DNA from: Lytechinus pictus | Taxonomy: Eukaryota | Reading direction: 5' to 3' | Length of the DNA stretch: 64,000 nucleotides | Assembly: GCF_037042905.1 (NCBI RefSeq) | Contig: NC_087251.1 | Coordinates: 13,208,001 to 13,272,000 of the forward strand | Part shown: piece by piece, positions 1 to 38,700 of the stretch | Layout of the letters: each line of letters begins with the position of its first letter | Numbering within the stretch: position 1 is the first letter of the stretch | The notes under the pieces: generated by a model | What the model was told of the DNA's origin: nothing | Databases searched by the model: none | What the model saw: the letters and a program-made list of their open reading frames with translations, nothing else | Made by a program: the position numbers and the translations under genes

Positions 1-2457
1 TATACATATATACAAATAAAATATTTCATACTAAATGGCCACAAAACCATTCAGTTGCTGATAATTATGAATTCACTCTTAATTGAACATGTACAGACTA
101 ATATAATATCGCAATACTGTGCAAGATTAACTACAAAACAGTCTGCATAGGTCCACCTTCTATAAGGTGAATGGTTGATCAAGTCACAGTATTTTTCAAA
201 CCAGAATATGCAAAATGTGGTGGAGCATCAGGTGCTGAAGTAAACATGTTGGACTTATTTTGATTTTCAAAAAGCTATTTGATGAAAACTATTGCAAGCA
301 TCATCCATAGGAAAGTAGGGGTTGTTCAGGGAGCATTCAGAACAAAACAAATAAAGTTGAAAACAATTCACCCTATTTATTAATACAAAATTATGATTCT
401 GAAACTTAAAATTGCCCCAAAGTCTATTCAAACAACCAATTGGAATTATATTCAAACAACAAATGAATTGAGAAAAGTGAAGATTGAATACATTTCAATG
501 ACAATAATAAACTAACCCTTTAATTTTGTGGTTAAAAGAAATTATGATTTAAATTTCAGAAAACTGACCAACAGCCCATCAAGAATAAGATTGCACAAAT
601 TGAATTTAGCTTGAGTACGACTGTGATATGATGAGATTGGACTAAGGCAGATTGACATGTATAACTCACCAAACCCCAATGAGAGAATAGCAATTAAAGG
701 GGTACTTGGGGCTGAAATAATTCTATCTAAATAAATAGAGTAATATTCATTAAGCGAAATGCTGAAAATTTCATCAAAATCTGACAACAAATAACAAAGT
801 TGTTGAATTTTGTGAAAACAGTTATATGCATGTCATCATGAATATTCATTAGCTGGGCTGATGTCACATCCCCACTTTCCTTTATATTGTGTCATTACAT
901 GAAATCATAATTATTTCATATTTTCATACATGTGTATGTTATATCTCCCGTTTAATAAAATAAGTTGCAGCAATGAATATTGAATGCAGTTTAATCGCTT
1001 GTCACTCTTTGAGTTTGTGTTTAGTTATTGGAGGGAAAATTTGAAGGAACATAATTTCATGTAATAAAATACAGAAGAACAAGTGGGGATATGACATCAG
1101 TTTGCTCACTGAATATTCATGAGGACATGCATAGAACTGTTTCACCAAAATGATGCAAATTGTCTGATATTTCTTTTTCTGCAATTAAGGGATCCATAAA
1201 ATTAGGTGATATTGGGACTAGTACAAAATGTAATTCAGAATGAAAACAAGTAGGAAATAGACCCTGTAGAAAAAATTGAAATTTTTCATTAGTCTGGGCT
1301 ATTCAATTTTTCAAATATTACACTCAGTTGCTGACAGGCAAGATACATACTTTACTTTGTAAACTATGTGTACATCTAAATGTACAACTATAGAAAAGTT
1401 CCAAGTATATCCAATTGTGGGTTATGTTTTTTTCATGTTATGATTGGTGTATGCTATTTTATTGTAACTTTTTTTCAGCCTTAGGGCCACAATCAATTGC
1501 TTACATAAAATAGCCATATTTTATTCTATTTCATTGGTAGTTTCTAAACTGACACACATAAAATTTTTAGAGACCCTACGACAACTGAATCACTGCCACA
1601 CCCTAATTTAATCTTTCACATATTGTTTTAAATGTTAAATAAAAGCCAAAGAAAGATCTTTAACAAAGATAATTTTGTGGTGGAACCATAGAAAATTATC
1701 TGACTTGGGGATTGTCATGCGTTCACAATTTTTTTGGCACATTGAAGTTCATTATAATAAGCTGCTAATTTCAGCCTCTTCTTATATAATTGGAAAATTA
1801 TTATTCTTCGCTGAATTGGCAATTGACTGATGAGATTCAATGAAATATGCTGTATGTTTCAATCATTCAATCATCAGGTAGCCATTATCACAAATTTCCT
1901 TCCGTTTTAGTCATTTTTTTTCATGACATTCAAGGATTCAAGCAGACAGGTTTGGTGCGTTCAAGCAAAACCACAAATATGAATCTTATCCAAATAGCAT
2001 TCAAGCTCTTTTCTTATCAACCCTGATCATCCTTCATTTAAACAAAAGCAACTGCGCAGTCGGTGATAAAGGAATCATCTCTCAACCTAGAGTGTTATGC
2101 CACAACAATGACGGGAAGTTGTAATTGATATCCCCAATGTCTTAAAGAGATTTTTAGCAAATGCCACTCTGAAGAATCAGGTCATGGAACACACCTTTTT
2201 CAGTGTTTCATGTTTGTGTTTTAAAAGACATTTTGTTTTTGAAGTCAGACAAAAGAATGATGGAACACACCCATGTCAAAAACTGAAAATCTTCGGCGAT
2301 CCTAGAGTGATATATGATTGCTTGAATGAACATTCAACTGTTGTCTCCATCCATAGAACTTGAAAGATCACTATATAATTGTCCAATTTACAGAATGAAA
2401 TTCATCCATATATTATAATGATTTCTATATTCTTCAAGGTTGGTTGCCATCCAGTCT

Positions 2458-5400
2458 TTACAAATTGTGTTTCATAAACTGCTGCAGGGCACTAAGTCTT
2501 GCATCAATCTCAGACATCTCATTGGTATCATTGTACAGGGTTGCACTCCGATCTGCAGTATCAACAACATTTTAAAAACAATCACTTTGACCCTAAGTCA
2601 CAATAGAAGTTTAAAGTAAATCCTACCTTTCATTAAGCATGTGTGCATACCAGGGGCCTGTTTCATAAAAGACTTGTTATAACAAATGTGTAGTTTTTAT
2701 AACAACCATCAAATTGAATGATTTCAGTAGCTTTAAACTGTTATTGCAAATTTGCCATAAAGTTTTATGAAACGGTCCTCTGAATATGATCCAATCATGA
2801 GATGGCTGTAGGTGTAAACTTGGCCATGTAGTGCACTTATCTGACTTTATTTTAATGTAATTATAAAAAATAAGGAGCAGGAGGGTGTTTCACAAAGATT
2901 TAAGTGCAACTTAGAGTCAGACTTAAATGCCTAGTTGCATGTGTTATAAAAAGCATGACGCATTGGTCAGATCATGCCAAGAGGACGCGCACTACTGCCT
3001 ATCAATCAATAAGATTGTGCTTTGCATATCACATACACGTCGGCATTAAGTGCAACTCTAAGTCATACTTAAATCTTTGTGAAACATCCCCCAGGTTTTG
3101 TAAATATGACTTAAACTCTTTTAAATTTCTATTTGCATGAGGGTATTGTATATGTTAACACATAACCACATTGTTAAATCATATGTATTATTGCATACAC
3201 ACAATGGGCATTAAATAACAAGGGTATAATAATGCATTTAGCATGATTCTGCAGCCCCAGCGTATGCCAAGATGTCTCAATTAACACTTAAAATTATACT
3301 TTTCCTAAATCAAATACATTTATTAAGTCCAAGAGATTTGACATATGCAATTCATCTCTATTATGTTACATTTTAGAACAGTATTTTATCAAATTTGATT
3401 GGATAAAGATCACAAAGGAAAGGGATGGCTGCGAAACTCTGTAATCATGACTGTCCAAGCAAATTCAAAAGGGAAGGTGCCTGTTAAGGTGTTGTTTTCT
3501 AGTAGTCTTCCTTACCTTGGCCATTGTATTCAGTAAGCGGTCTGCTCCTAGTCTTGCCACCAGCCCCTCTCCTTGATGGATAGTCAGGATCAGGTGTACT
3601 CATTAACGTGAGGAAGAAAGTTAAGGAAATATCAAAGTGGTAAGGTTACCGTGGGAAAATGAAACCCAAGCCAGGGATGAAAATTAAAACCGTATCACTG
3701 AAACTGAATAACTTGTTTCAATGTATATATTGGTTTTAAGAGACCACACACATTGTAACATATCCAAACATGGAATGCTTCATTTCAATGTTCCAAAACA
3801 ATATAAGAGAACAACTCACTGATTCAGTGATTTAAGCACTAATAATATATTGAAGAAGTCAATAGTTAAAGCAGAACTTGATGTAGACAGACCAAGTAAA
3901 TATTCAATAATCCCTTAAATGACCATGTAATAAAATTTACTCAAAAAGGTATCAGTAGGTTTATATGATAAGGATATCTTTTGGGAGCAGCTCCAGTTTT
4001 CCTTCTGAATGGCTGAAAGGAAGAAGGAAAAAAAAGCAATTTATAATTTACATTATGAGCATATTCATTGGAGCATTCATTTAGGATGTAACACAAAGGG
4101 ATACAATTGATATTTTACAATTAATTTTGTAATTTTTGGACATGGTCTGCCATATCTTTACTCTCATCATTTATTTTAAATTGATTGTATTTGTTACTTC
4201 ATGTGCTACAAGGCCATGTTCTCAAGGTTATTTAATTTCTAATCATATGGTTTGGTATGACCATCATAAATTTGATATTAATGATATGCTTTTTGATAAG
4301 AAACATGTAAGACTGGATCATATATATCATTCACTCTGCATTCAATCATTCCAAAAGAACTATTAGCTTTTTTTTTTAGAGGCTCATCATAAAGGGTTGT
4401 GATTGATACAATTCAAATTCAAATTAAGGTTTATATGACTTAAATTGATAAATGGCAAAATTAAAACTCTATTTTAATTTGACTTTTATTTTTAATCAGC
4501 CACAACTCTTTGTAAAAATGAAGCCCAGATTAATCACATATACAGGATCAAAACGTTAACATTTGATAATCTGCAAGTCATACTGAGGGCAACACAGTTT
4601 TATAAACGAGACTGTTTTATTATAATAAATTACAATGCTATTCATTTATCTAGAGATTTAAAACCAGAGATGGCTTACCACATTTGGACTTGACCATGCT
4701 TTAGATGAAGAAGTCTTGCCTGGCTGCAGCACTTCTCGTAACCTCCTGTTTAAATGAGTAATACAAATGAAGATTCATTTATCTAATGACTAATCTTCAA
4801 TCGCTTTTCACTGAAGGACTGATATACCTCTGAGCTCATTCTGTGAATGTGTTGGCAAGTCATTTCATTAAAATTTGGGGTCCATTTCATATAGGACTTA
4901 CAACTATTGTAATTTTGTCATTGTGCCAACTAACATGGTAACGGGGCTCAGCAGCCAATCAGAATCAAGGTTTCCATAGTAGTTGTCATAATGGCAAAGT
5001 TACCATAGTTGAAACAGGCCACTGGTCTTAGTCCAGGGTTAGCTTTATAAAAACTATGAGAATACATGTACCAAACAATATCATTCTTACTTTTTTCCAT
5101 TACATATTTCAACTTCTCCATAGTTACCTACATATTATTTCTTGCATATTAGACATGTCTGTGTCCATCTCTTTGCAGATTTCTCCTACATATAAAATGC
5201 ATGGAACATTGTTTACATGGTCAAAAAGGGCACCTCAATATAAATGGCAACCCCAATTTTCAAAATAATATTTTTCTAGATTGATTAAAACAAAAGTCCT
5301 GTAGTCATATGAGCGATAGATGAAAGACAATTACCTTCTTCTTCCTTCTGAGGCATCAGATAGCACCTCCACATCACTGACTCCACCCCCAGATGATCTT

Positions 5401-8400
5401 CTGCTTCCAGCTGATGAGCTCCTTGAACGAAACCCTAAGATACAAAGATTCAATATGAACCATTCATTGCAAAGATCTTATTCAGAATCCAGCAAGAATC
5501 AGAATTACCTAAAAGAACCCTGGCAATTTTTGTAATCAATTTGTAAGGTTACAGTTAGGAGCTAAATTTTTTCATGATTTTTCTATTCAAGTCCAATGTT
5601 TGAGACCAAATGTGCAATGCCTAAGTATGTGGTTCTGAAATTATGCAACATCATGTAAATGCCTGTCTGAGTGTCAGACTCCAAATTGCTATAAAAAAAA
5701 GAAGATGATTCCATGTACAAATCCAATAAATTTCTGTTTTTAGACGAAATTCATAACTTACATCATTATTTCTACTTCTACTTAGTAAAACAAATTAATT
5801 TCAAGTTCAATCGCTGATGTGGTTTACGGTGCACCATGTGGAGTGTTATAGAAACAGTGGATAGAAGAAGAAAAGGAATTGGATAGGCGAGAAAGTGGAG
5901 ATTTGAGAGTAGAGTATTCTTTTCTTAAATGTAGTCCTGAAAAGAACTGTAAACCAGAAGAGATTGATGAGTTGAAAACAGCTTGAGTAGTAGGGTTGAT
6001 GAGGAGATGCTGGCTTGAGTCGGCGAGTAGAGATGATGAGTAGAAGCAGTAGAGAGACTCGACGTTTCGGGCAGGTTGACTGTCCGTCTTCAGGAGTGAG
6101 TGTTCGCTCATCAACCCTACTACTCAAGCTGTTTTCAACTCATCAATCTCTTCTGGTTTACAGTCCTTTTCAGGTCTACATTCAAGAAAAGAATACTCTA
6201 CTCTCAAATCTCCACTTTCTCACCTATCCAATTCCTTTTCTTCTTCTATCCACATCAGCGATTGTACATGCCACCATGCAAACCTTCAAACAACATCTAA
6301 TTTCAAGTTCTTTATGATCAGAAAAGTGTCACTGACAATTTACTTTAAAAAACCCTAAAAAGATACAAAAGGTAAAATAAAGGCAAACAAAGAGTTACAA
6401 AAATACATTAAAAATTTTGGGAAAAAAATACATAAGAGGACATTCTAATACTAACTATTTCAATATATGCATTTTGTATAATTCAATTATAAAAAAAAAT
6501 TACATTGTCTTAGATGATTATTCGACCAAGGGAATGTCGACTTAACTGTACTATCCTAATCACTGTCACAATGGGTACATTAAACATTGAATATGTAATG
6601 AATCTTACCTCTGTACCCATCAGAGAGCCGTTTCCTGGTTCTACACCTCTCCCCTGATAACCTTGATTTGCCACTAGACCGCACTGCACTGTTCTGTAAC
6701 CTGGCACTGGTTAAACACAAACAACACCACATATCAAAAATGAAAAAAAAATCATCAAACTGTACTAACCATCAAGAATATATTTTGATTAATTACTGGG
6801 TCTTAAATGTAATCATTGCACTTGTGTTTCAATATTGTTTCTTTATAAATCCTATAGGTTAACTCATCAATGAATAGAAATGAAAAGTAATTTACATATA
6901 AATTCATGGAATGATTCAACTGGAGAAAAGGATTTAAAAAATCATTACATTTATTTTTTGTGTGCTTCTTTGATGACTTGGAATTGGACTCTGATCTAAG
7001 TTTTTATTACTCCATTTCTCATACTTTTTCTCAAAACAAACATGGACTTTCCTTTGAATATTCATATACCAACCTTTTCAATTTGGATTCTTCCTCTCTA
7101 CGTTTCTTCTCTAGAATGTAAGCTGTAGGGTCAAATCTGGGACCTCTGGCACCTGATGAAAAGACAAGACCATACTCTGTTAGAGGGATGATATTCAATT
7201 TTTTTTCAGATGAAATGAAAATGACTAGATCATGATTACAAGTGACATTAATTTTAGCAAAAAACAGCAGGATTATTGGACTACATTATGTATTCCCTGA
7301 AAGAAATGAAAAGCTGTAAGGATCAATATTTTCCCCTCTTTCCTTATTTTAAAATTTTTCAATAAACATTATCACTGGTCAGAGTAACTATATTGAAACA
7401 GTGATTAATCTCCTTTCAAGTGATAAATGATTTAACCATAAATTTAATCTACTCAGTATTAACAATAGGTTGATAATCAGAAACTTATTAACAAACCTGC
7501 AGGTGAGATGCTTCGACTCCTACTCCCCACCGATGATACACTTGACCTTCGACCCCTTGAAAGTGATCTCTCTCTACTGCTTGTGTCTATTCTTGATCGA
7601 GGCCTAGATCTCGCTATGTCAGCTGATGGTGGTCTCCTAGCAACAGGTCTTGACTGACGTTGGGATAATGGGGTGGGTACCATTGGAGAACGGCTACTCC
7701 GCCTCGATGGACTGAGTTGGTTGGGAAGGAAATAAAGAGAAATAAAGATCATAGATTTGATATCAATTGTGCATAACTTCACTGAGTCTAATGTAGGATG
7801 TGTTTCTTCTTTTCATAGAACCCAAAATCAAGAAATAGGAAGGCAAACACAAAAGTAGAAACAAAACCTGCAGAAGCAACAGCAAAATACAAGCAATGTC
7901 TACTGGTCAAGAGAAGGGACCGAGTGAGCTAGACTACCCTGTTCAGATAGATGAATTGCGTACAAAAATTACTCAAGCTCAAAGATAGAATGTGTTCTAT
8001 GAAAGACAGAGGAATTTTGTCTGTCAAAATGTTATGGAGAATGTCAGACAAGTCATTTTACTGCCTAAGCAAAACAGTGCCCAAATGAAAGTAAAGGTCA
8101 GAGTCTTTAAGTTTTTTCTTTATGAACACACTCTGCATCGGGTCAAAGTTGATTAGGCACACTTTTTGTCAAAGAAAAACAGTGTGTTATGCTCACATGA
8201 CCAGAGAAGGAGTCATACTCCATTCAACAAATCAAAGGGACTGTTCACAAACAAAATTTTTTACAAGTACTCATCTATCCAAGAACCATCCCAGACTGGA
8301 ACTCCCTCACACCCTCAACCATTGAAATCAAGAGCACCAAAACCTTCAAGCAAACAGTACTTCAAACATTTACAAAGTAAAAACTAAAAACTGCCTTCTC

Positions 8401-11400
8401 TCTCCATGCCAACAACATCGGCGTACAACCTACCAAGTTGGTTCCTACTTAGAGGTGTTGGGCAGTACACCCAGAGAAGAAGAAAGTTATTTCATGATGC
8501 TACATTTCATTATACCCCCATTCCACAGAGAGCAAGACCTCTGAAAGACTGCTGTGAGACCATGAAACTTGCTTGATCTTTCAAGGGTCCTTCAACGAAC
8601 TTTGAAAGATCTTAGAGGTCTTTCACATTTCCTGATGGATCTTTCAATGGTCTCCGTGGTCCTCGTGAGTCCCAAAACTTTTTGAAACGGTTCAAAACAG
8701 TCTTAAAGGCCCCCATTTCACAGAACGGAGACCGTTGAAAGACCACTGAAAGACTTAAAATTGATGAGGTCTTACAGCGGTCTTCAAGATCACTGAAATT
8801 AGTCATCTCTGTGGAATGGCTCAGAAAATCCCCTCAAAGAACTCTGAAAGACTGATGGATATTTCTTGTCTTACTGGTCTTAGACTAGTCCTATAGAGAT
8901 CTTTCAATGGTCTTTCAGAGATCTTTTATGCAACAAGTGATCTTTCAGAATTCTTTCCATGGACTTTGCTTGGTCTTTCAATGGTCTTGCTCTCTGTGGA
9001 ATGGCCCCTTAAGCGGTCTTTTAAGAAAATGGTCTTTCAGCAGTCTTTTGATGAAGTTTCAAAGTTCTTATAAGTCTTTCCATGATCTTTCGATAGTGTC
9101 TCAAGATTTTTATGGAGATCACTGTAAGACTCATGAGAGATCATTGAAAGATCTGTGAAAGATCATTGAAAGACGAGGAAAACTCCATGTAGTACCACTC
9201 AACAGCAATACCTTGCTTCAGACTCGATTGCTACAATTTGCATAGAGTCATTTAAAAAATCCCAATTTCTGAAGGTGTACATACTATTTTAAAACAGAAT
9301 TTAACTTAGGTTCTCTATTTCAAACAAAGACGAATGCAAATCTTCCAAACACATAAGTGCTGAAGAAAATTCTGAGCACCAGGCAAAGTTTGACACTCGA
9401 ATGAAAAAAATTGAGCATAAGAGGAAAAGGACGCTGATCAGCAAAGATCTGCTGTTGATCCCTCTTTTAATCTTCAGCAAGAGCTGTTTTGTCCATGGAT
9501 CAGCAAGCACATCAATCCTAAATTACAAGTGCAAGCTATCCAAATACAACTTTACTTTGAACAAACAAGGTAGCAAGGAAAGACATTATTATATGATTGT
9601 TGGATGAGGTAAATGGAACAAGAGGTTCATACAAAATGGGCTCCTGCCTGATCCATCACCTTTAACAGCTTCCTGAAAGTGTGGCACATGTGACTCAGTT
9701 CAGTGACTGATGCATAGATCATAACTGCCGAATCCCAGCAAGCAACATTTTGAAATCCGTTTTGAGGAGGCTTCCAAACGTCATAAACGTGATTATCTTG
9801 CAAACTCTTTTCAGGTGTGTGCAACTGCTAAGGCCCTTCTACTGGAGAAGCAACAATATCACTTCTGATATCATTAGCTTATTGACTGCTCTATTATTCT
9901 TATTGACCCAATTTACTAGTGAGCTGAAGTTTCCTAATAGATGGAATCCTGTTTTGTATAAGATAAATGCCACTTGTGGTACTGATCTATAAATAAGTTT
10001 GAATAGAATCCAATTGAATGACCACCCAAGTGCATGTAGGTATGATAAAAAAATAAATGTGCCAAAGATTCTGGTAGAAAATGTGTATTTACTGAGAAAT
10101 TAGCCAAAAGGCATGGGTTCGGGTGATCTTTTCTTACAAAAATAGTTTGCATAAATCTACTAATTTGAGATCTGCAATGAATTTAAAGTCATTATCATAA
10201 AGTTATTGCTTGTCGTAACTTTTTGTAGTTACGGATAACCATCATCATCTACATCACCATAATTCATATTTGGGAGTATTACTTACTTTCTTTTCAAGAT
10301 GCTTAGCTCATTTGTAAGACTTTTGACTCGCACTTTTAGATTACGCTCACTGGCTCTCAGTTCTTCAACCTGTAAATAATTATGGTTAAGAGTAACATCT
10401 TCATAATGTATTTCTGAATCAAGAAATCACATGATATGATCAATCAGTTAATTCATTTAAGTATTTATAAACCTACATATATCTAACATACAGGGATTAT
10501 GAATCAATCAATCATTTCAAAGGTTTTTAATCCTCAAGGCTGTCATCACTAAAAAGTAGTCATTCCCAGATACCCAAGTAACAGTGCTTCTCAGCCAATC
10601 AAATGCAAGGATTTATTGAAGTTGTCATGTATACCAAACTTCATGAACTGGTACCCCAAGGTGTATTATCAACTAAAATCAATTTTTGAAATCAATATTT
10701 AAGTTTTTCACCCCTTGGATGAATTGAGCCATGTTTAAAATAAATGGAGAAAACATTTACATACAAAACATGGACTTGGCAATGTTTATTGAATGAAATC
10801 AATTCTAAAATTGATTTATAGATTGAGTGCATTCCTCTGAGAATCATGGCCTCTCTCTGAACACTGTAAGAAGCTACTGAAATTCTTGTGCATGCTGCGA
10901 TTGGCTATGAGAAAAGATATTCCCCCAAAGAACCCACCTCCTCAAGCAGCTCCCTGTAATTCTGACTTCTCTTACTGGACGACCTCTGGTATTTCCTTCT
11001 CTCATTCACCAAATCTTCCTCTAGATTCTGGATAGCAGTTTTGAGAATGCGGACCTCTTTGGCTGCACTACCTGTCGATGTGTTCTTCACTTCTCTCCGG
11101 TATCGCAGGAAAGCATCCTCTATTTCTTGCTTCTCTAATAGGAGATTCTCATAGCTAACAAAAGGAACAGAAAGCAATTAAAAGATATCTTAAGGTGTTC
11201 TATATTAAATCATACATGCAAAATATTATATCATATCATATCATGAATATCTTATGTACTATAAACTGATGAAAAAGGGGGGTGGAAGAGTATTCAAACA
11301 AAAAATTAAGCCATTTATAGCTGTATCTAGTGATCATGAGCAAAGTCCGATTTCATATATAGCTTAGCATAACTAGAATGATTAAGGAAATGACAATGTC

Positions 11401-14400
11401 TGGGGGATATCCTTGATACAATTTCGAAAATAAAATCACAGTTAATATGTGTACAGATTTACATTGCAATTGACAACCAAGATTTTATTTCCCCTTGCTA
11501 TACAATTTCAGAACAGCTTAGGATATTCAGAATTATCACAAATATTGGGTGTAAACAGATCGATTACTCTGAAATAAAAAAGAAAATTGATAAAATGCTA
11601 CTTACTCTTTGGTGAGCTTAACAAGTTCTGAAGATTTGGGATCTGAAGTAAGCTGAGAATTGAACGGAATGTAGACAGAAATTAACATTAAAAAATTATA
11701 TATATCTCATTAAAAACTGCAACTCAGAATTGATTAATCATTCAATAATTTGCAGCAAAAATTTATTTTTATCCATTGTTGTTAGTTTTAGGTTTATATT
11801 TTCATAAGGTATTCATTTATCTCCGCATTGGACATTCAATCATAAAATCAAGACACTGACTCTTTACAAATAACATTGCTGAATCTATACAGAAATGAAA
11901 ATATAAATCGTCCAAGGTATCTTCACTCAAGTATGATTGAATAGGTTATAGTTGTTATATGACTGAAGTGGAGAGATCCCATAGTGGGATCCACACCATA
12001 CCAAAATTTTGGGACTTGGATTTAGTCTCGGCTTAATATCAATTCAACTCATTCACTGTATAGCTGGATGATTTGATCATAGCACATACAGTTTGGGAAA
12101 TAATTATTAAACCATTTTCTTAACTCACATACAATATTGTCTAATAATCATTTACCAAGCTGTTTGCAGTTGCATTCAATTCTACTAATCAGCAAACAAA
12201 TAATAAGAGGTCATGGTCATTGTTGCCAGATGAGGCATTTACTAGTATCTACATTTGCCACGCTTCACTCATGTGTAAGTTAATGTGTAACACGTAGAAG
12301 AAAATTTCTTGAATGTTTGAGGGCATGATCAAGCTAAGCTGGGGTAATTATGTAGTGCTTTGAAGTATTTGTATGAAGTGTTATATATATAGTTGTTAAC
12401 TTGTGGTAATCAAACCACTGGTCTGCCATGATAAAAGAACAGACCAAAGAATAAAAGATAAATTCCATAGTTGTTGACGTACCCGTGATTTGAGAAGTTT
12501 TATTTCTTTGCGTAATTCCCTGACAGTATCTTGTAGAGCCACAGGATCAGGTTTACCTTGGTAGGGCAGGGGTAGGGGATAATGGATCCTGAAAGAAACA
12601 AGTAAATATTTCAAATTACATAGTATTGGAGTTCCAAAAAAAAAATCAAAACATGAATTGCATGTAGCAATTGGTTTCAACAAACTTAACCAAAATATAA
12701 ACATGAGTGGAGCTGTGCACTGTACATGTGTGTCATTATTTCATACTGAATTTGGTTGAAGGTCTCAATATGCTATTATTTGTGTTTATGATATGAAATA
12801 AACTTTCAGGAAATCTGATTTGAGTTGCAGGAAATATATATATACCTTGCCCTACAAAATAAATCAATAGTTATGTGATTTAAAACATGTGCGTATTGAC
12901 TTCAGTTACACATGATTTTTTTTAATAATCAAGAATAACATTTAGTTCGCCAGTTTTATGAAATGCCTTCATATCAATTGGGGTTAAGATTGATAATTTT
13001 CCTCAATAAATAGTTGGATCAGAATCCTCAAGATCCAAAGATATTCATCCATACATGGGTATAAAATGTCTGATAACGATAACTTTTAATAGGGAATTGC
13101 AAAGGATGAAAAATTTATGATCTACATGTATCACTCATCTGTAACTCATTTGGTAATTTGCATTCTTACCTGTCAAATTCCACAGTGTAGGTGACAATGA
13201 GATAACGTTTAGTGTTGAGTGCAGACCTCTGAGCCCCTGGGATAGTCCGGGTACCAAGACCAGCTTTGCGGTTACGAAGCGACTCAAGATCAGCATAGGT
13301 CAAAAGATCAAGGCTCACAGAGTCAGAGTTCTGCAGAAATATTAAATATACAAGGTAATGTGTCTGTAAACAGGGGCAATCTACATAGCAGCAAAGAGAA
13401 ATAGTTATAAGTATTCTTTCCAAAAAGACCACTCCAATACTAGTCATTCAATTATTTATCATCATAAGGAAACATTCATGCACTCATTAATAAGAGGGTG
13501 ATTAAGGAGTAACGGTTTATTTTTGAAGAACATGTTTGGTTCCGACTCTCAACTTGTAATCACAGGGTTGTGTGTGTGACCCCTCCATGGGTTAGTGTCC
13601 TTTGGAAAGTCATCTTAATGGGTATCTTTAAAGTCCTAGAGACCCATTCCTGATGAATCAAGTGCTATATGATGTAAAGAGGAATATTATCATTATTAAT
13701 TGGTTTTCACACATTCCCACAATCACTCATAATTCCATATTTCTTGAGAAACTTTGAAAATAAAACCTTCAACACTCACCTGTAACAATGCTGATTCTAA
13801 CATACTCAAGAAGATGGAAAACTGCTTGTAGTTCCCAGTTTTGTGTGTTAAGTCTTCAATATCTGTGTAAAAACCAAAATAAAATATAACCATCACATAA
13901 AGATGACACATGAGTCAACATGATTTCAGTGGCATGTGTAACAATGTTTTAATGAGGAAAAATATCACTGTTTCTTTTGATAAGAAACCTTACAGCCCAT
14001 CCCATTCCCAACTTTAAAACCTTTTGTGTATTTCATCTTATTAAAAGAAAAATGTTACAATTACAAAATTTAACACTTTTTTTTACAGACAAAAGAAGTC
14101 AGAAGACAACAAGTTGATTTCCCAATGACTTTCTCTGATTAATACAGAGTTTTTGCAAATGATAAGAGCACAAAACTAAAATTACTGCCACTGGTAGTGT
14201 TCTCATTGAACGCCCATGAAGGTAGTGATAACTCATCAAACAATCAAGCAAACTTACAAGCTGGTTCAAATGATCCTCTCCATTGGTCTGCAGTCAATCT
14301 ATCCTCTACCTCTACAGTGAGTAGATTATCATCATTCACCCATATGCTGACTATGTAGTCAACTCCCCGGAATGAGAACCGAGAGCTCACTACACCTCTT

Positions 14401-14414
14401 TCTTCCTGCATCAT
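2458..14414 (-). CDS. CCDC61: Coiled-coil domain-containing protein 61 (CCDC61/VFL3, centrosomal SAS6 paralogue), 15 coding exons, about 544 aa
   Basis: Phase-consistent hand splicing of exons 14258-14414, 13780-13862, 13170-13330, 12483-12588, 11606-11652, 10938-11154, 10287-10369, 7497-7711, 7074-7152, 6609-6706, 5335-5434, 4679-4745, 3978-4012, 3516-3607, 2458-2552 (1635 nt). The translation has CCDC61 hallmarks: FRGVDY..VEVEDRLTADQWRGSF..IEDLTHKTGNYKQF..DLLTYADLESLRNRK..KRYLIVTYTVEFDRIHYPLPLPYQGKPDP, RFDPTAY, and C-terminal MSEIDARLSALQQFM. All introns are GT-AG except 3608-3977 (AT-AC). Confidence 0.95.
2882..3092. mobile_element. MITE (non-autonomous DNA transposon) in the last CCDC61 intron
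   Basis: Terminal inverted repeats GGGTGTTTCACAAAGATTTAAGT... / ...ACTTAAATCTTTGTGAAACATCCC. Shorter GGG...CCC-ended relatives lie at about 2652-2780, 4877-5022 and 46612-46742. Confidence 0.65.
3608..3977 (-). other. U12-type (minor spliceosome) AT-AC intron of CCDC61
   Basis: The 5' site reads AAAAG|ATATCCTTAT. Branch site TTTCCTTAAC (3620-3629) ends 12 nt before the 3' site CTCAC|G. Splicing keeps the frame (APK-R-LMSTPD). Confidence 0.9.
5811..6261. mobile_element. Penelope-like element relic: ~146-bp inverted repeat around a hammerhead-containing loop
   Basis: Arms ~5858-6003 and ~6107-6252 are near-perfect reverse complements, with outer TCGCTGATGTGG/CCACATCAGCGA. The loop carries the CTGAAGA...CGAAACGTCG motif typical of Penelope pseudo-LTRs. 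Confidence 0.7.
6057..6097 (-). ncRNA. Minimal type I hammerhead ribozyme motif
   Basis: Minus strand reads ACTC-CTGAAGA-C-GGACAG-TCAAC-CTGCCC-GAAA-C-GTC-GAGT. Stem I is ACTC/GAGT, the core is CUGANGA plus GAAA, stem II is 6 bp with one A.C mismatch, stem III is palindromic ACGT, and the cleavage triplet is GUC. Confidence 0.7.
8516..9005. mobile_element. MITE-like element with many internal GAAAGACC/GGTCTTTC motifs
   Basis: Inverted ends CCATTCCACAGAGAGCAAGACC / GGTCTTGCTCTCTGTGGAATGG. A second partial end lies at ~8805-8820, and similar motifs continue to ~9175. Confidence 0.6.
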
Positions 14415-15860: not shown

Positions 15861-18807
15861 GGAAATAACCGCAGTGTCCGCACAACAAATACTAGACCCA
15901 ACATATCATAGTACGTTTTTTTCTTACAGCTTTACGCAGCTAACTTGAAGTCATGGGTCTTGGCAAGACTTCCATATGTCCCCGCCACTAAAATTGAAAA
16001 AAAATATGGAGGAGGTTTATCTCGCCTTGAGGACTCCATGATGATATTTTTTAATATTTTGACATATACTTCTTCATCATGGAGCCTTGAACCACTTCCC
16101 ATATACATATAAGAGACACATGTAAACAATCCATCTTTGAAGATTGAAATCACGTAAATGTTTGTGATTTTACTAATCTATACACATTCATACGCCTAAT
16201 GCGTGTGAAGGTTCCAAAAATTTGTTATTAAAAAGGTAAAAAATTGGTTTCTTACCAGACCGATCTCGTGTAGATCCCTCGATCCATTTGTACACAACGC
16301 AAATACAATAGGCTTGACCCTTGAACTGCTTATGTATGACGTACCTTCGATTAACAGTGTTACAAAATGCCGTTTTGAAGAACAATTTATAGAAAAAAAT
16401 TATTATTTAACAAATAATGAAATATGAAACTTGATTAAAGTTTTATCTATTTAAATTGTTCTTCACCTTTTGTCTTACCTTTTTAGCAAAATACATTAAA
16501 ATTATTAAAATAATATTTAATGTTCTTTATTGAAGTTCTCATTATCCATGAAAAATAATAAAATTGAACAAACGAAAAAAAATCAACTCTACAATCTACC
16601 CCAATCATGCCAATTGTTCTCTGAGTGAGGGGCGGAGCTTAGAGTGGTCACAAAATCTGAGCGGAGTGGACCTTCCTTACACCAACAGCTGCAGATAGAC
16701 TACTACAACAAAGTGTTCTCAGCAATGCCAATGATGAACTGGGCTAGTCTAATGCTGATGACTGGTGCGCTAACCATACTTCAGTGGAACGCGCAGGGGC
16801 TGTTAAATCACGGCCCTGAACTTATAAATTACTTGAATATGCATAAAGACCTTTATCATATAATCTGTATCCAAGAAACTTGGTTTAGTGGAGATCACAT
16901 ACTGGATATCCCAAAATACCTTTGTTTTAACTTTTAATAGAAACAGAGAAAATCGTTCTAAAGGAGGTTGCACAATTTACATACATGAATCCCCCAATTA
17001 TGAATACCCCATTAATGATAAAGAAATTGAAATGCAATTTACTAAAATACATATTGCCGGAACAGCGATCTCCGTTGTAAATTTCTATAATCCATGCAAA
17101 AAAATGGATGATGTTATCTCAAACAAAATCACCAACGGTATAGATAACAACCTTTTCCTTATAGTTGGGGATTTCAATTCCCACAATCCTGTATGGGGCA
17201 GTGCAAAAACAGACCAAAATGGTAGTGGTTGAAAACTTCATCCATGAAAGAAACTTTGTATTTTTAAATGATGGAACAGGAACTAGAATAGATCCACATA
17301 CTGGGAAAACTTCGTCTCGACCTCAGTATCACATCCCCTCTGCTATCTGGTAAGTGCACTTGGGAAGTTCTGCAACACACTTTTGGGAGTGATCATTTTC
17401 CCATATCTACCCAAATATTACTGGATCGAACCAGGCAGGTAAATAATCAAAGGGTCAATGAAGAAATAAACTGGTCTTTTAAGAAATTTGATTGGAATTC
17501 TTTCACTAGAAAGTGTCAAAGAAGTCTAACAGGAGATAGAGATATCCTAACCGACCAAACTGATATATATAGTGATTTTATTAATGAACTAACAAACATT
17601 ATAAGTGATTTAATGCCCAAGAAGGGCAAGAAGAAACACAACCCCATTCCTTGGTGGACAGATGAATGCACAAAAATCATCAAAGAAAGAAATAGGGCTA
17701 ATAATAAATTAAAAAGACATATCCTCAGAATATTTGAACATTTATTTAAAGAAAGCAGAAGCCCAAAAGATTCTGCGCCAATCAGAAAAAAGATATTGGG
17801 AAGATTTCTGTCGAAGACTAAATCCCTATGTACCAGAATCCATGATCTGGCACACCATTAAAAGACTGAAAGGGTCGGTCAACAACAAACAAAAATTAAA
17901 AAACATGCCAATCTTTAGTGGTTAATGAAAAGGAAATTTTGTGTGATAAAGAAAAAGCTGAGGCTTTTTCTTCCTTTTTCCAATCTATAAGTCAAGTAGA
18001 AGAATGCACGGGAATAAAAGGCAATGAACACATTGCAATCAAGTCAATGAACCGGGGAATGGAACACGTTTTGAATGAACCTTTTACGTTTCAGGAATTA
18101 CAAAAGGCTCTCAATACTTGTAAACAATCATCCCCTGGGGAAGACAAGATCCCTTACCAGGTGTATCAAAAACTTCAGAATGAAAGTAAGAATTATATGC
18201 TAAAGGTCATGAATTGGATATGGGACACGGGGGCCATACCCCCAAATATGAAACATTCTATATTAATCCCTGTACTAAAGCAGGACCAAGACCCTCATAC
18301 TGTATCATCATATCGACCCATAGTACTAACTTCGTGCTTTGCTAAGATACTTGAACGGATTGTAAAAAATAGACTTTAGTGGTACTATGAAAAGAAAGAA
18401 ATATTCCCACCTTTTATGACAGGTTTTTGCTCCAAACGTAGTTTGGTGGATAATATAATACTTCTAGAGAACACGATTCAAAGAAGTATTAATGTTGGTG
18501 AATATACATTAGTAGTATTCCTTGATATTTAAAAAGTATATGATTGACTCGATATCAAAAGCTTAATATACAAACTAGCATCATATTATGATATCTCGGG
18601 CAATATGCTACAATTCTTGAATAACTTTTTGAAGGAGCAAACTTTTCATGTGAAGATTGGACAGGAAAAATCAAAATGCCATGAAATATACAATGGTCTG
18701 CCCCAGGATAGTGTTCTAAGTCCATTGCTCTACAATATAATGATGTGTGATATCCCGACTGATGAAACTGTTAGAACATCTATATACATGTATGCGGACG
18801 ACTGTAC

Positions 18808-19813
18808 ATGATTCGTAGTCTGAAAAAGTTCACCCTCTCTAGAAAAGACCTAACTATCTTTACATGCTATCTACGACCAATACTAGAGTACTGTGCACCT
18901 GTGTGGCACTCATCCATAACAGCCAATGAATCAAAACAAATAGAATCTATCCAGAAAAGAGCATTGCGTATCATTTTTGGCAAAGATTATTTCTCATATG
19001 ACAATGCACTTTCAACTTCTGGCCTTACAACCCTATATGACAGACGTGTCACTTTGTGTATGAAATTTGCACTGTCCCTTGAAAAGTTCTTTCCCCATTG
19101 GCTACCCCCCAAACAATCTGAATTTAGAGCCCTCCGAAATAGCAAGAAATATAGACTGACGAAGTGCCGCACAGAACGATACAAGAAAAGTACCATGCCC
19201 TATATAATCAGGCTTTTAAATGATAGATGAGTAACACATATGATGTTTCTATGAAGCTTAAACGTGCTACGTATTTCCCCAAATGAACTTATCTTATAAT
19301 GTATTAATTACCCTTTTTATATCCATGTTGTATATTATCAATTTCCTATGTATGTTCAAGTAATTATATATTCGTTATATTCCAAACACCAGATGAACGA
19401 AACAATGGCCAATTTTACCAATTATGCCTTTATCCTATTTTGTAACAATGCCCCATTATGTTGAACCTTTTCGATTTTTTGTTCAGCAGGACCGTTTTTT
19501 CCTCTTTATGTTCTACTTGTAAACGCTTCCTTACACACACTCAACTTATCATTTCTCTTATTTTGGAAACATTATTGTTCATTGAAGTTATTATGGTTAA
19601 TCGAAATTAGTATTGCAAATTAGAATCATTATTTTTGTAAATTTGAATTATCACTGTATATTTGAATTATTATGGTTAAATTGAATTAAGATTATTATTG
19701 TAATTGAGATTTTATTCATGTTTATGTGCAATTTATATGTTTTTATTGTAAATTCAATGTCAATTCAGCCTTCGTAGCTGCTAAATTGGATAAAATATAT
19801 CTTGAATCTTGAA
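18808..19813 (+). mobile_element. 5'-truncated CR1-group LINE (L2/Crack/Rex1-Babar-like) 3' end inserted into the I-group RT
   Basis: C-terminal ORF2 motifs YLRPILEYCAPVW..IESIQKRALRII..RTERYKKSTMPYIIRLLN (18808-19230) are followed by an AT-rich 3' UTR, a CAATTCAGCC..GCTGC stem-loop and a (CTTGAAT)n tail. The host frame YADDCT|VWISG resumes after it. Confidence 0.85.
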
Positions 19814-20508
19814 CCTGTCTGGATATCGGGTGCAGATATAGAGCTTATTTCAAAACAATTATAGTATCATTTGAATAAATTTAACAATTGGTTTACCAAA
19901 TGGGGATTTCGTCTCTCACAGAGCAAAACAGTCCCAGTACTTTTTGTACTAAGAAGAGGAAAATCAAATATCCGAAGCTCAGGTTAAACAATGCTGCCCT
20001 GACCTTCAAATCTGAGAAAAAATTCTTAGGAATGATATTTGATCAAAAACTGTCATGGAAAAATCATATAGATATGATCATTTCAAAATGTAAACGTAAG
20101 ATGAATATTTTGAGGTGCTTAACAGGTACGACGTGGGGGAACTCCTCGAAATCGTTACTGATTTTATATAAAGCACTAATAAGATCATTATTAGATTTTG
20201 GCTGCGAAGCTTATGATAGTGCACCCTCATACATCATAAAATCCTTAGATCATATTCAATATCAGTCTCTGAGAATATGTGCAGGAGCTCTTCCCCTAAC
20301 ATCACTTGCTGCCTTACAAACAGAATTAGGTGAAATTCCCCTAGACTTACGCAGGCAGATGCTTGCAGATATTCTAAGACAAAAAATTGCTATACATCGT
20401 GATCATCCTGTTAACGTCAAGCCAAACTGGCAAATGGAGATATTAAAACATCAACATAATCATAAACCTTTTGGATGTAGGACAGCATTGATGAATGAAA
20501 AACCAATT

Positions 20509-20795
20509 AATAATAATAATAATATAGAGTATTTATAAAGCGCCAAATCCACATTGATTATGTGCTCAAGGCGCTGAAATATACTTGGTATATTATTATT
20601 ACCCCGGCTGTAGCTGAGCGGCCATATAGGCGCTAAAGCATTCAAGGAATAAATCCTACCGGGTACCCATTCACCTCACCTGGGTCGAGTGCAGCACAAT
20701 GTGGATAAATTTCTTGCCGAAGGAAATTACGCCATGGCTGGGATTCGAACCCACGACCCTCTGTTTCAAAGTCCGAAGACTAATCCACTGGGCCA
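20509..20795 (-). mobile_element. tRNA-derived SINE with L2-like tail
   Basis: Minus strand has A-box TGGCCCAGTGG, B-box GGTTCGAATCC, core CTCGACCCAGGTGAGGTGAATGGGTACC and tail GGCGCTTTATAAAT..(TTA)n. It is flanked by a CAATT duplication (20504-20508 / 20796-20800). Confidence 0.9.
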
Positions 20796-23249
20796 CAATT
20801 GAAACTTATACTGTATCTTGTCTCCCCCCATGGACAATGATTCTTCCAAAAGTTTCTCTAGAATTGAGTGAAGTTCTGAATAAACAACAAAACCCCTCAT
20901 ATTTAAAACAACGTAGCTTAGAACTTATAGGAAGTAAATGGTCAAATCAGTTGCATATATTCACAGATGGGTCAAAAGTTCCAAACGATGAAACAGTCTC
21001 CACTTCCTTCTATGTACCAGCTTTCTCCATCCATGAAGTAAAAAGGATGGTGAACCATACATCATCATTCAGAGCTGAATTAGCAGCCATCGTCCTTGCC
21101 CTCAACTGGCTGGAGGATATTGATGTATACGTCGGAATTGTGATTTTTTCTGACTCATTGAGCGCATTACAGGCCATAAAAGAAGAAAAGGATATCCTTT
21201 GTCACAGAAATTATAATTTTAACTACTAAATTAAACTATCAAGGGAAACAGATCCACCTTGAATGGATCCCTAGCCATTGTTGTCTACATGGGAATGAAA
21301 TGGCAGATCATTACGCCAAAGCTGCCCTACAAAACAACATTGAAATATTTAATAAACTATCTCTCTCTGAAATAAAGAGTATTATTACGGATAAGTATAT
21401 CACCCTCTGGCAAGATAGGTGGAATTCATCGCACACCTTTCTGAGACAGGTACAACCTGCCGTTAACAAACCACATTTGTGTTTTTTAACAAGATTTGAG
21501 GAGAGTATTGTTCATAGATTAAGACTCGGAGTAGTAGGTTTGAACAAAGATCTTTTTAAATTGAAAATGCATCCAACAGGATATTGCAATAATTGTAATG
21601 GGTGTATTGAAACTGTAAGTCATTTCCTCACTGAATGCCCAAAATACAATATAGAAAGGTCTATGTTACTTGTCGAAACCAATATAACTGATACTAAGGA
21701 AATAATGACATTACTGATAAGTGCACAAAACAAAAAGCAAAAGTCCATCGTCCGCTTTGTTTTAAGGACAAAGCGATTGTTTGAGAAACAGTAAATCTAG
21801 GTAGCTAGCTATGCAGAACTTTAGTTGCTATCTTGTTCTCTTCTTTATCAGTTAGTTAATTGTCTCATGATTATGAAATTAATATTTCACTGAGAAGACT
21901 TTTGTCATCAATGCAAGACTTTTCTGAGGTATTACAAAATGTAATGACTTCGTGGCCACCGCTCGATAGCGAAATGATTTTTAGAAATATATTTCCTTTG
22001 CAGTCTTTTACTTAATCATATCTTACATACTACTATATTTGAAACTATATATATGTATATATTTCTGTGGGTATATACATGTATATATATCAGCTATTGG
22101 AAGTTATATAACTATTGCAATTATTATTCATTAACTTAATCAGTCGCGTGTTGGATGTACACACGATATATGTTATAATACTTTTTTCATCTCTAACCGC
22201 CCACAATATCTTGCAACTAACCTTGGATGATTGGTCGCAAAGCATCCCACACAATATAATTTACTAAACTGTCAATATTATGCAATGTGATAGATTATGT
22301 TTTATCTTTGTTAAAGCTTTGACTTTAAGAAAGAAAAAAGAAGACATCTCCCTGTATCTTGCTGGGGTTTCTTTCTTTCTTTTTTCTTTGCAAAAGAGGG
22401 AGAGAAGAAAGGATATTTAATAGTTATGACAAAAATATATATAAAAAAAGTAATAGAAACAAAATTAAAATAATAAATTAACCACCCAAGTGTATTGACA
22501 CTTCCCTTTTTGTATTTGCTGGATTTCATGTTTGAAGGCTCTTTCTCCATACAGACAAGTGTCAATCGACTGACTGAGGGTCACAAGGAGGAGGAAGGGC
22601 TTCCTCCCACAAGGGCCCCTTTTTATTTTCCATGTAGGTAGGTTAAAGGCGTTTGTCCCCTGGAAAGATCAAACCTCAAGATGTTGATGGACCTGAATCC
22701 ACCGACGGGACAGTCGTAACCCCGTAACTCTGGTACGGGTGTGGGAGTGGGCTCTTCTTTCTTTGCCTGTCTCTCTTTCAGTCATTTCAAATCAGTTTTT
22801 TTTTTTCTTATCTTATCACTTCTTGATCACATAAATCCTTTCTCTCTCTGCCTTTACTTTATGGGTCAATAAGTACCGAAAAACTTGTTAAAACATTATC
22901 CCCTCTTGTTAGAATGATTTTCTTTTATATAATATCTCATAGATCGTCGATCAACAACCTTATCATTTTTGGGAAGTAATCCCCCTATTGTTTGCTGATA
23001 TCTTATTTCTCAGTTTTTTGTTTCATATGTATTTAAATGTCTTTTTTTTTGTTTTTTTTTCATAGAAAAAAAAAAGGAATGAATATAAAAGAAATAAAAA
23101 AAAGTAATAAAAAAATAATTAATAAAATTGTTACCCTACTTTTCATACAGTGGGTGGCAAAAATAGTCAATCATGACTTATTGCCAAATAAAAACAAGGA
23201 ATGGAATGGTGTGTTGCTGCCCTCTACGCGTAAATATTCATATCTGAAT

Positions 23250-35700: not shown

Positions 35701-38700
35701 GGATAACGGAAATGGGTGTTGTACGATAGGCCTATACAGATCAAAAATAAATATTATACATACCTCCAACCTTCGAAATATCTTGTTCGCGCGTAAATTA
35801 GAATATCGGGTTTGTCGTCGTTTGAACCATAATCATAAAGTTATTTTCAAAATACTTTTTAAGTACACTTAACATACACCCACCTATTCACAATTCTGAA
35901 TCATGGTCTCACTGAAACACTAAAAGGGTAATACGCAAATGCATCCGAACATCTTTTAGAAGAGTAAATATTGAGGTTTATGGATTTATGTCCTTTCTTT
36001 CCTTTTTAATTGTTAACATATCTACATGGTGATCAATTACATAAAATTCAATGAGTACCAGTAAGGAATAAAAATATGCAATGATGAATTACATCACTAT
36101 AGAATAAAGTAAGCAAGAGCTGCATTCCTTTACTGAGCAAAATCAAATGTTCTAAATAAATTTATTTCGGTTATCTTACTGTCATTGATTATTTTAAAGT
36201 AATATCTGACGAGTTGATCTGTCGATGGGTTCACCTTATACTTTAAAGAATGTGACAGACATTGCACCTCATTTAATTGTAAACAAATGACATTTTTAAG
36301 AAGAATGTCCTTTTTTGTTTGGGAACCGATTTTTTTTTCCAAGGAATAGGCATTAGGTAAAACAGTACCGTTTGATTGATTGGCTTAATTCAGCTTGATT
36401 GACACTATAATTACCGTAATGGGTTAATAAGAGGGTAATTATGATAATGAGTGTCATTTCATCTACAGAAATGGGTAAAAAGACTTTGGAGTATAATATA
36501 CGCAGCAATGATTAGGCCTACTACCCATCCCTTTGTTATGGTAACAAACCTAACATGTATGTCGAATAATATTACCTTTCGAGATGGTACGCCCCTCGAT
36601 CTCTTTGAGCATTCAGAACAACATATACCTCACCACTAGCTTGTCTTGTAAACTGTATAAATAAAATTTCAAAGCCAAGTAAAATATAGAGTTGCAACAA
36701 ATTATGTATCAGAGCCCTGTTATAATCAAAATTATGATGGTTGTCTCAGTTTGGAAAATGTATACTTGAAACGTTGGTGTTAATAAACTAAGCAATCAAG
36801 AGGCATTTGTGGCGGTAATTTTAGTGCGGGCAGAGTTGGGAACAGACCCATTATAGTCCCAATATTTTTAAAAGCTGTTAAAATGTCTACCTCTAGTCTT
36901 CACGACTGGTTCATCAGTTTAGAATTGATGGACTGGCATGAATGTAACTAAAAAGAAGTAAGTCTAGACCCTGAAAGCAATTGGCGCATAAATAGGGGGG
37001 GGGGGCGGTATGGGGCATATGGGGAGTTCCACGACAAAGAAATAAAGAGAAAACAAAAAAAATGGAAAGGAAAAGGGTGAAATATCATATTATTTTCTTC
37101 TTAATATATTGTCAAATCGTGGAGCTAAAAGAGGAATATCCATGGTCGAACTTTATAAAATAAAATAGAATGTTTTCTTACAAAATGCCAAAATATACTA
37201 CTCAAAAAAAGTTAAGGACCACTTTTTAAAACGTACATAAAGATTTTATACAAGGTGTTTTATTTCTGGAAATACCTCAGTACAACTGTCCTAAATGTCC
37301 TTAAACACGCTGTAATCAATTTCACGCATGGGTGGTTTCAGTTGTTGCACAATGTCTCTCGCATCACTGCACATCCTGAAAAGTGGTAAAAACGAATGTC
37401 TGAGTGTCTTTCAGGCAGTTCAGTAACGAGTGTGACCACCTCCTGCAGCAATAACGGCTTCACAGCGCTGTCTCATGGAGCTGATGAGGCGATTGATGTC
37501 TCTGACGTCCAGTGCATCCCATGCAGCCTCCAGAGCCACACCCAGCTGCTGCAGTCCAAGTGGATGGGCTTCGAGCTGCTCGAGACTCCTCCCCATCATG
37601 TCCCAGACGTGCTCTATCGGGTTTAAGTCCGGGGACCTCGCTGGCCACTCCATACGCTCAATCCCCTGGCCCTCAAGGAACTCGGTCACCACCCTAGCTC
37701 GGTGGGCACGGGCATTGTCATCCATGAAAATGATGTTTTGTCCCACATTTTCTGCAAATGGCACCACTATAGGTTCAAGGACCTCATCCCTGTACCTCAC
37801 TCCTGTCATTGCTCCCCCTGGGACCACGTAGAGACGAGTACGGTTGGCGTAGGTGATGCCTCCCCACACCATGACGCTGCCTCCCCCATAACGGTCATGT
37901 TCTGCAATACAGGGGTCTGCAAATCTCTCTCCTGGTCGCCTCCAGACTCTCGAACGTCCATCATTGTGGTCAAGGGAAAATCTGCTCTCATCTGTGAACA
38001 GAACTCTACGCCATTGCTGTCTGGTCCATCTGACATGCTCCCGGGCCAAGTTGAGACGAATTCTTCTGTGAGCAGGGGTGAGTGGGACACACTGAGCTGG
38101 CCGTCTGGCATGCATATTGGCTCTGTGAAGTCGGTTACGGATTGTTTGAGTGGAAACAATCACTCCAGTTGCTGCAGCGAAGTCATTGTTGAGGCGGCGT
38201 GCACTGTGAAAGCGGTTGCGGAGGCTGAGATTCGTCAAGTAGCGATCATCTCTAGGGGTTGTCGAAACTGGTCGGCCACTGCGGGGTCTCTTGGAGTATA
38301 GCCCTGTCTCTCGGTGTCTCTGATTTGCTCTGCTAATGACACTGTGTGACACGCCCATCATTCTGGCTACTCTTCGCTGACTGAGGCCAGCTTCCAGCAT
38401 CCCTAGGGCTCTGGCTACATCTGTTTCACTTAGGTGGTGTCTTGGCATTGCTGTTGTAGGCAAGTTGTTGATTGTACAGACTAAAGACGGAAAATGCTTT
38501 GGAAGACACTTGTCTTATGGCCCACTGCAATGATGCCAGAGACATCATGAAAGAACTGCATGTGTGAAATTGATTTCATTGTGTTTGATGGCATCCTGGA
38601 CAGCTGTATCTTGGCATTGCTGTTGTCAGCAATTTGTTGATTGTAGAGACTAAAGACAGAAAATGCATTTGAATCCACAGCCAGAGCCCTAGGGATGCTG

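Follow-up and report, generated by a model that had tools for sequence, protein, structure and literature searches.

Coding exons 13 and 14 of the CCDC61 gene of Lytechinus pictus are separated by an interval that begins with AT and ends with AC, which raises the question whether it is removed by the minor spliceosome and, if so, how long the gene has carried it. We studied this in a window of 64 kb, i.e., the whole stretch of DNA that was analysed. Taken together, we consider it highly probable that urchin CCDC61 holds a spliced 370-nt AT-AC intron, likely removed constitutively by the U12-type machinery and likely of old bilaterian origin, with retention in both echinoderms and molluscs and a loss in vertebrates.

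The coding span of CCDC61/VFL3 covers positions 2458..14414 of the minus strand, where 15 exons join into a single open frame of 544 aa. The spliced model is identical (544/544) to XP_063958038.1 (P0055; CCDC61-like, Lytechinus pictus); compared at the level of this protein record, the junction is therefore already annotated in RefSeq. A second protein, XP_054758866.1, differs from the model in three residues. Exon 3 as query matches proteins named CCDC61, and the SAS6-like head domain matches the PDB entries 6HXY, 6HXV and 6HXT with E-values from 3e-58 to 2e-52 (query P0001, with 3 differences from the model). A Pfam search with four single exons gave no useful match. The described CCDC61/VFL3 protein, a SAS6 paralog, has the same head domain, coiled coil and region of low complexity as well as the conserved C-terminal helix alpha9 (PMC7267773). 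The alpha9 residues I529, R532 and L533 are invariant in 22 sequences, and EIDARL of this helix is encoded at 2511-2494 in the last coding exon 15 (2458..2552, minus strand). That is, alpha9 is found here downstream of a minor intron, whereas the sole mention of an intron in the available text of PMC7267773 refers to a Chlamydomonas insertion.

The window also contains several repeats and elements. Two similar inverted copies are located within intron 10 (5824-6358), and a long, strand-skewed tandem repeat fills 61400-64000. Upstream of CCDC61, a broken element (16629-21794) shows endonuclease-, reverse-transcriptase- and RNase H-like pieces, which we take, by resemblance, to be LINE-like. Two adjacent transposase copies of opposite orientation (37420-38514 and 38647-39679), one with an open 364-aa frame and one frameshifted, are presumably Tc1/mariner-like, again by resemblance.

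The AT-AC intron spans 3608..3977 of the minus strand (370 nt, phase 2) and splits the codon of Arg483. It is coding intron 13, i.e., located between exon 13 (3978..4012, 35 nt), which has a U2 intron on its other side, and exon 14 (3516..3607, 92 nt), which starts with the conserved LMSTP; exon 12 (4679..4745, 67 nt) precedes, and all of these are on the minus strand. Read in the direction of transcription, ATATCCTTAT comes after exon 4012-3978, and the 3' part consists of TTTCCTTAAC (3629-3620), 12 nt and the CAC end (3608) before exon 3607-3516. For U12 typing, we counted the mismatches to RTATCCTT for the 5' site and to TTCCTTRAY for the branch site. The predicted U11/U6atac 5' splice site ATATCCTTA (3969..3977) and the predicted U12 branch site TTTCCTTAAC (3620..3629) both show 0 mismatches, with 3622 or 3621 as the predicted position of the branch A; either adenosine of a U12 branch sequence can act as branch point (PMC3584512). 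The intron thus starts with ATATCCTT, its branch sequence TTCCTTAAC ends 12 nt short of the 3' end (CAC, 3608..3610), and 11/12 nucleotides of this last stretch are pyrimidines. Its terminal dinucleotides (3977-3608) are AT and AC. The earlier note had placed an AT-AC intron at 3608..3977, with exons 13 and 14 joining in frame and a consensus branch site 12 nt upstream of the 3' end; coordinates and motifs proved exact. What the analysis shows are the motifs, the exon ends, one open frame and the agreement with the public protein.

The U12 class is defined by its 5' site and branch sequence, and the optimal distance from branch to 3' end is 11-13 nt (PMC3584512). Among the 14 coding introns of CCDC61, U12 signals are found in one (1/14), i.e., intron 13. 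The other 13 are GT-AG introns with 3-5 mismatches to the U12 5' consensus and 2-4 mismatches to the branch consensus. With regard to the described U12 AT-AC class (PMC3584512, PMC7367187, PMC6717393), the intron shows the same 5' ATATCCTT, branch TTCCTTAAC, 12-nt spacing and YAC end, the same non-zero phase and the same setting of a single minor intron next to 13 major introns, and we see no difference in mechanism. The statement of the earlier note that AT-AC introns form a small minority of U12 introns has to be corrected, since they make up about a quarter (human 26%, mouse 25%, zebrafish 22%; PMC7367187 Table 2). AT-AC introns of the U2 type, which are removed by the major spliceosome, do exist (0.01% of human U2 introns; PMC7367187), and the short pyrimidine run between branch site and CAC would suit such an intron. 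Yet both U12-defining signals are perfect, their spacing is at the optimum and the 5' site does not resemble the gene's 13 U2 donors, such that we regard a U2-type AT-AC intron as extremely improbable.

We also compared the signals with a shuffled background. The 5' octamer alone occurs at chance level (5 in the window vs. a mean of 4.4 in 300 shuffles), and a 5' site with a branch/YAC pair 40-2000 nt apart is seen in 10/300 shuffles. Chance is ruled out because the signal pair falls exactly on the exon ends. Other 5'-like or branch-like motifs of the window (22416, 21195, 44237, 60954) are neither paired nor set in an exon context. An Rfam search over the 64-kb window gave 0 matches, i.e., no U11, U12, U4atac or U6atac gene within it. 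For the related Strongylocentrotus purpuratus, about 274 minor introns are reported, and genes for U11, U12, U4atac and U6atac are listed (PMC11347168 supplement). Given the 5' site, branch site and spacing together with the minor snRNAs of S. purpuratus, it is very likely, judged from sequence signals, that the minor spliceosome removes the CCDC61 intron. Following the known mechanism, U11/U12 would bind ATATCCTT and TTCCTTAAC jointly, one or the other branch-site adenosine would serve as branch point and U4atac/U6atac with U5 would complete catalysis, while the AC at 12 nt would be picked by its distance from the branch site.

Public sequencing runs provide information on the junction. We compared 4/24 listed runs over positions 2300-5500; all consist of contigs, and three are labelled 'RNA?' and one '?'. 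Among the 24 listed runs, none is recorded as RNA. In run X1, record 1 (2979 nt) carries the pieces 5334-5436, 3516-3607 and 2300-2552 at its positions 1262-1364, 1466-1557 and 1558-1810 with 0 differences, i.e., the exon 14 piece ends at 3607, directly at the predicted 3' splice site. The gap between the first two pieces corresponds to exons 12 and 13 (67+35 = 102 nt, with one G shared with the intron start). The bin depths of X1 resolve into 68, 24, 34 and 1 bases, which are exactly 3516-3607 and 3978-4012 (the latter as 34+1). X9 and X5, which belong to a related organism (B), show 22+36 bases, i.e., the same total as X1 but shifted by 2. In the simplest reading, this shift would stem from a G-to-A change at the first base of exon 14 that lets two letters fit on either side. 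As deduced from depth arithmetic and the coordinates of the pieces, the junction 3978-3607, which the earlier note had proposed to look for in reads, fits the spliced contigs of 3/4 runs; the fourth, X24, is uninformative at the exon 13-14 junction. No cover is found inside the AT-AC intron for X1, X5 and X9. The contigs of X24 are unspliced across introns 11, 12 and 13 alike and therefore represent DNA or pre-mRNA rather than an intron-specific retention. Within the compared region, very high-copy short repeats are found in intron 14 (2660-3100) and intron 11 (4885-5020), where contig depth is in the thousands.

A true junction at nearby GC-AG or GT-AG sites (using the AG at 3552, or an AT-AG 9 nt downstream) would turn the AT-AC intron into an artefact. 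Some alternative joins do preserve the reading frame. For GC-AG, 2/36 pairs keep the C-terminus via the purine-flanked AG at 3552, at the cost of the conserved STP peptide and with poor GC donors. Among the joins of an exon-12 GT to an AG, which skip exon 13, 1/19 keeps the C-terminus, again via AG 3552 and with the STP peptide deleted. A bypass by U2 splicing alone thus exists on paper. Furthermore, in-frame 3' ends are present 9 and 12 nt downstream of the CAC end. None of these joins (AG 3552; 3' ends 9 and 12 nt downstream) has contig support in the runs examined. In contrast, the X1 piece shows 0 differences up to its end at 3607, the summed lengths agree exactly and the urchin proteins carry the full KRLMSTP, such that we give the artefact hardly any credence. 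The earlier note had found no usable GT-AG pair. This holds for exon 13, where no GT donor is reachable ahead of the in-frame stop, and no GT-AG alternative preserves the conserved peptide; it does not hold for the exon-12 GT joined to AG 3552. The junction peptide itself was found where orthologs were expected to have it: KRLMSTP is present in Lytechinus and Strongylocentrotus proteins, and [KR]-x-x-STP is conserved up to vertebrates.

If the intron is retained, the computed product is 494 aa long, with 11 residues added past Arg483 and the stop 425 nt upstream of the last junction. Stops located more than the usual 50-55 nt before the last junction expose a transcript to decay. The retained RNA is therefore a predicted decay target, and alpha9 would be lost. 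Failed splicing would accordingly lead from retention via predicted RNA decay to the loss of this conserved helix. This consequence is one argument for a regulated switch, where slow or stage-specific minor splicing limits the full-length, alpha9-bearing CCDC61 in ciliogenesis or spermatogenesis. The Chlamydomonas alleles vfl3-1 and vfl3-2, which are without alpha9, are mutant, where the authors allow for instability (PMC7267773); a rate-limiting model of minor splicing has been put forward (PMC3584512), ciliary genes are linked to minor splicing (PMC13216214) and an Antedon isoform is truncated from the homologous site on. Against a switch, the runs show no AT-AC-specific retention, given that X24 is unspliced over introns 11-13 alike and the intron is uncovered in X1, X5 and X9. 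In addition, much of minor-intron evolution is argued to be neutral (PMC10639083), and the intron is absent from two animal genomic loci (L032, L040) and from the mammalian lists, thus CCDC61 works without it. A regulated switch is therefore unlikely, and we favour constitutive removal.

To what extent the intron is shared among animals was studied on translated protein models, for which the trace patterns were defined after the first cases had been seen. When read through from its 5' side, the window intron encodes R-Y-P-Y, while its 3' end, read in frame, gives S-L-T-F-F-L-T before LMSTP. Y-P directly after the homologous residue, as in the window's retained intron, is found in models of Mizuhopecten (P0093), Haliotis (P0021), Patella (P0196) and Elysia (P0337). 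For the first three, a spliced form of the same species or genus is without Y-P. In Mizuhopecten (scallop) and Haliotis (abalone), Ile is kept before Y-P, which only an A, and not a G, at the first intron base would allow. At the other end, Thr is found directly before LASTP in Solemya (P0019), Batillaria (P0048), Ruditapes (P0061) and Nucella (P0098). This corresponds to a codon AC-N, as expected for an AC end in phase 2, and in 3/4 of these models the upstream residues (S-L-T, T-L-T, F-L-D) are able to encode the branch motif.

The background frequencies per codon in the window are 0.0016 for Y-P and 0.051 for Thr. T-L-x-STP occurs 4 times among 456 proteins of at least 280 aa, all of them from molluscs. 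Y-P followed by a residue with a T-starting codon after the FDPT motif occurs 12 times in the same set, of which 4 are at the homologous site; the other 8/12 were excluded by eye as being elsewhere, and P0033 (terminal Y-P-R) was excluded as ambiguous. Wrong joins close to the site are present in further models (Paralvinella P0325, Mactra P0092, Littorina P0198/P0199, Pomacea P0350), which are uninformative on the intron type, and a profile search of representatives gave no further read-through cases. Among echinoderms, the Antedon isoforms X1 and X2 (P0013, P0056) diverge at the homologous residue, where X2 (484 aa) is without alpha9.

Eight mollusc models appear to have U12 signals translated at the homologous position, which would make the intron one of bilaterian age. 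The best reading of these traces is an ancestral bilaterian U12 intron with several losses. An independent gain in echinoderms, with the mollusc traces due to coincidence or parallel gain, would be in line with the lack of any such intron seen in other genomes (L032 and L040 are without it) and with the scallop site, which is one residue farther from STP than the urchin site. However, both ends of a U12 intron are seen there across eight models, each from a different mollusc genus, and recent gain of minor introns is considered rare (PMC10639083; PMC3584512). We thus consider an independent gain very unlikely. Under the ancestral reading, the U12 intron accounts for at least eight wrong or odd public mollusc CCDC61 models, in line with the earlier note's remark that gene predictors often mis-annotate such introns.

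For vertebrates, a different picture emerges. File 8 of PMC6717393 lists 770 minor introns for human and 722 for mouse; CCDC61 is not among them, and 9 other CCDC rows are found there (human sheet 3, mouse sheet 6). U12 traces are observed in 0/166 vertebrate-named models compared to 7/44 mollusc-named models, and vertebrate CCDC61 isoforms vary at the flanking introns instead. The lack of vertebrate mis-predictions is weak evidence because most models are from RefSeq and usually RNA-guided. The intron was likely lost in vertebrates or possibly converted to U2 type, two outcomes that look alike in these data. The earlier note had suggested to compare the orthologous intron in other echinoderms and chordates: the Antedon isoforms split at the site, and the human and mouse lists are without CCDC61. 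Similar patchy presence across animals is known where individual lineages have lost or converted minor introns (PMC10639083; PMC3584512), while here the apparent loss falls in vertebrates, which are described as having retained U12 introns best (PMC3584512).

A metagenome scan provided 55 loci, of which four (L029, L047, L030, L031) end before the intron site; a scan of genome contigs found no relative. In the animal genomic loci L032 (4125-4320) and L040 (16490-16690), the exon is fused, i.e., without an intron at the site, and L040 is also without the last intron. L032 is placed weakly near Lingula/Tubulanus (support 84) in a quick, poorly resolved tree. L015 and L016 are without the STP peptide. 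Other RTATCCTY matches in the loci are, where placeable, inside introns.

The coral-like locus L029 (13120-13245, plus strand) shows a 126-nt GT-AG intron of U12 type inside the conserved FDPTAY motif, with the signals GTATCCTTTT and TTTCTTAAT, the latter 10 nt before AG. Transcript L002 joins across this intron. The urchin gene, L015, L016, L032 and L040 have no intron at the FDPTAY site. If true, such a second U12 site in corals would suggest that a control of ciliogenesis through minor splicing of CCDC61 was maintained repeatedly. CCDC61 would then be a hidden invertebrate target of the minor spliceosome, whose bilaterian-age AT-AC intron gates the helix alpha9, on which basal-body function depends, and was dropped by vertebrates; we regard this as quite doubtful.

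The CCDC61 intron is an unremarkable representative of an established intron class, which is familiar from sea urchins, and it is already part of a public gene model. Minor-intron surveys across thousands of genomes exist (PMC10639083). A minor intron in CCDC61 is not described in any paper that we found, and the available parts of the supplements of PMC7507305, PMC10639083 and PMC11347168 do not name the gene, with gene-level lists for urchins not evident there; online intron databases may list the intron already. In relation to the human and mouse U12 lists (PMC6717393), the difference is the host gene, which is missing there. What is added here are the putative U12 traces at the homologous site of mollusc CCDC61 models, implying a bilaterian age.

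The importance of the finding is modest. A sea urchin is expected to have a few hundred minor introns, and the CCDC61 intron is one of these. With its 370 nt and perfect signals, it would be convenient for reporting minor splicing by RT-PCR in ciliated embryos of sea urchins. It also provides an example of a minor intron that was apparently kept by invertebrates and lost by vertebrates, i.e., of cases that human-centred lists miss.
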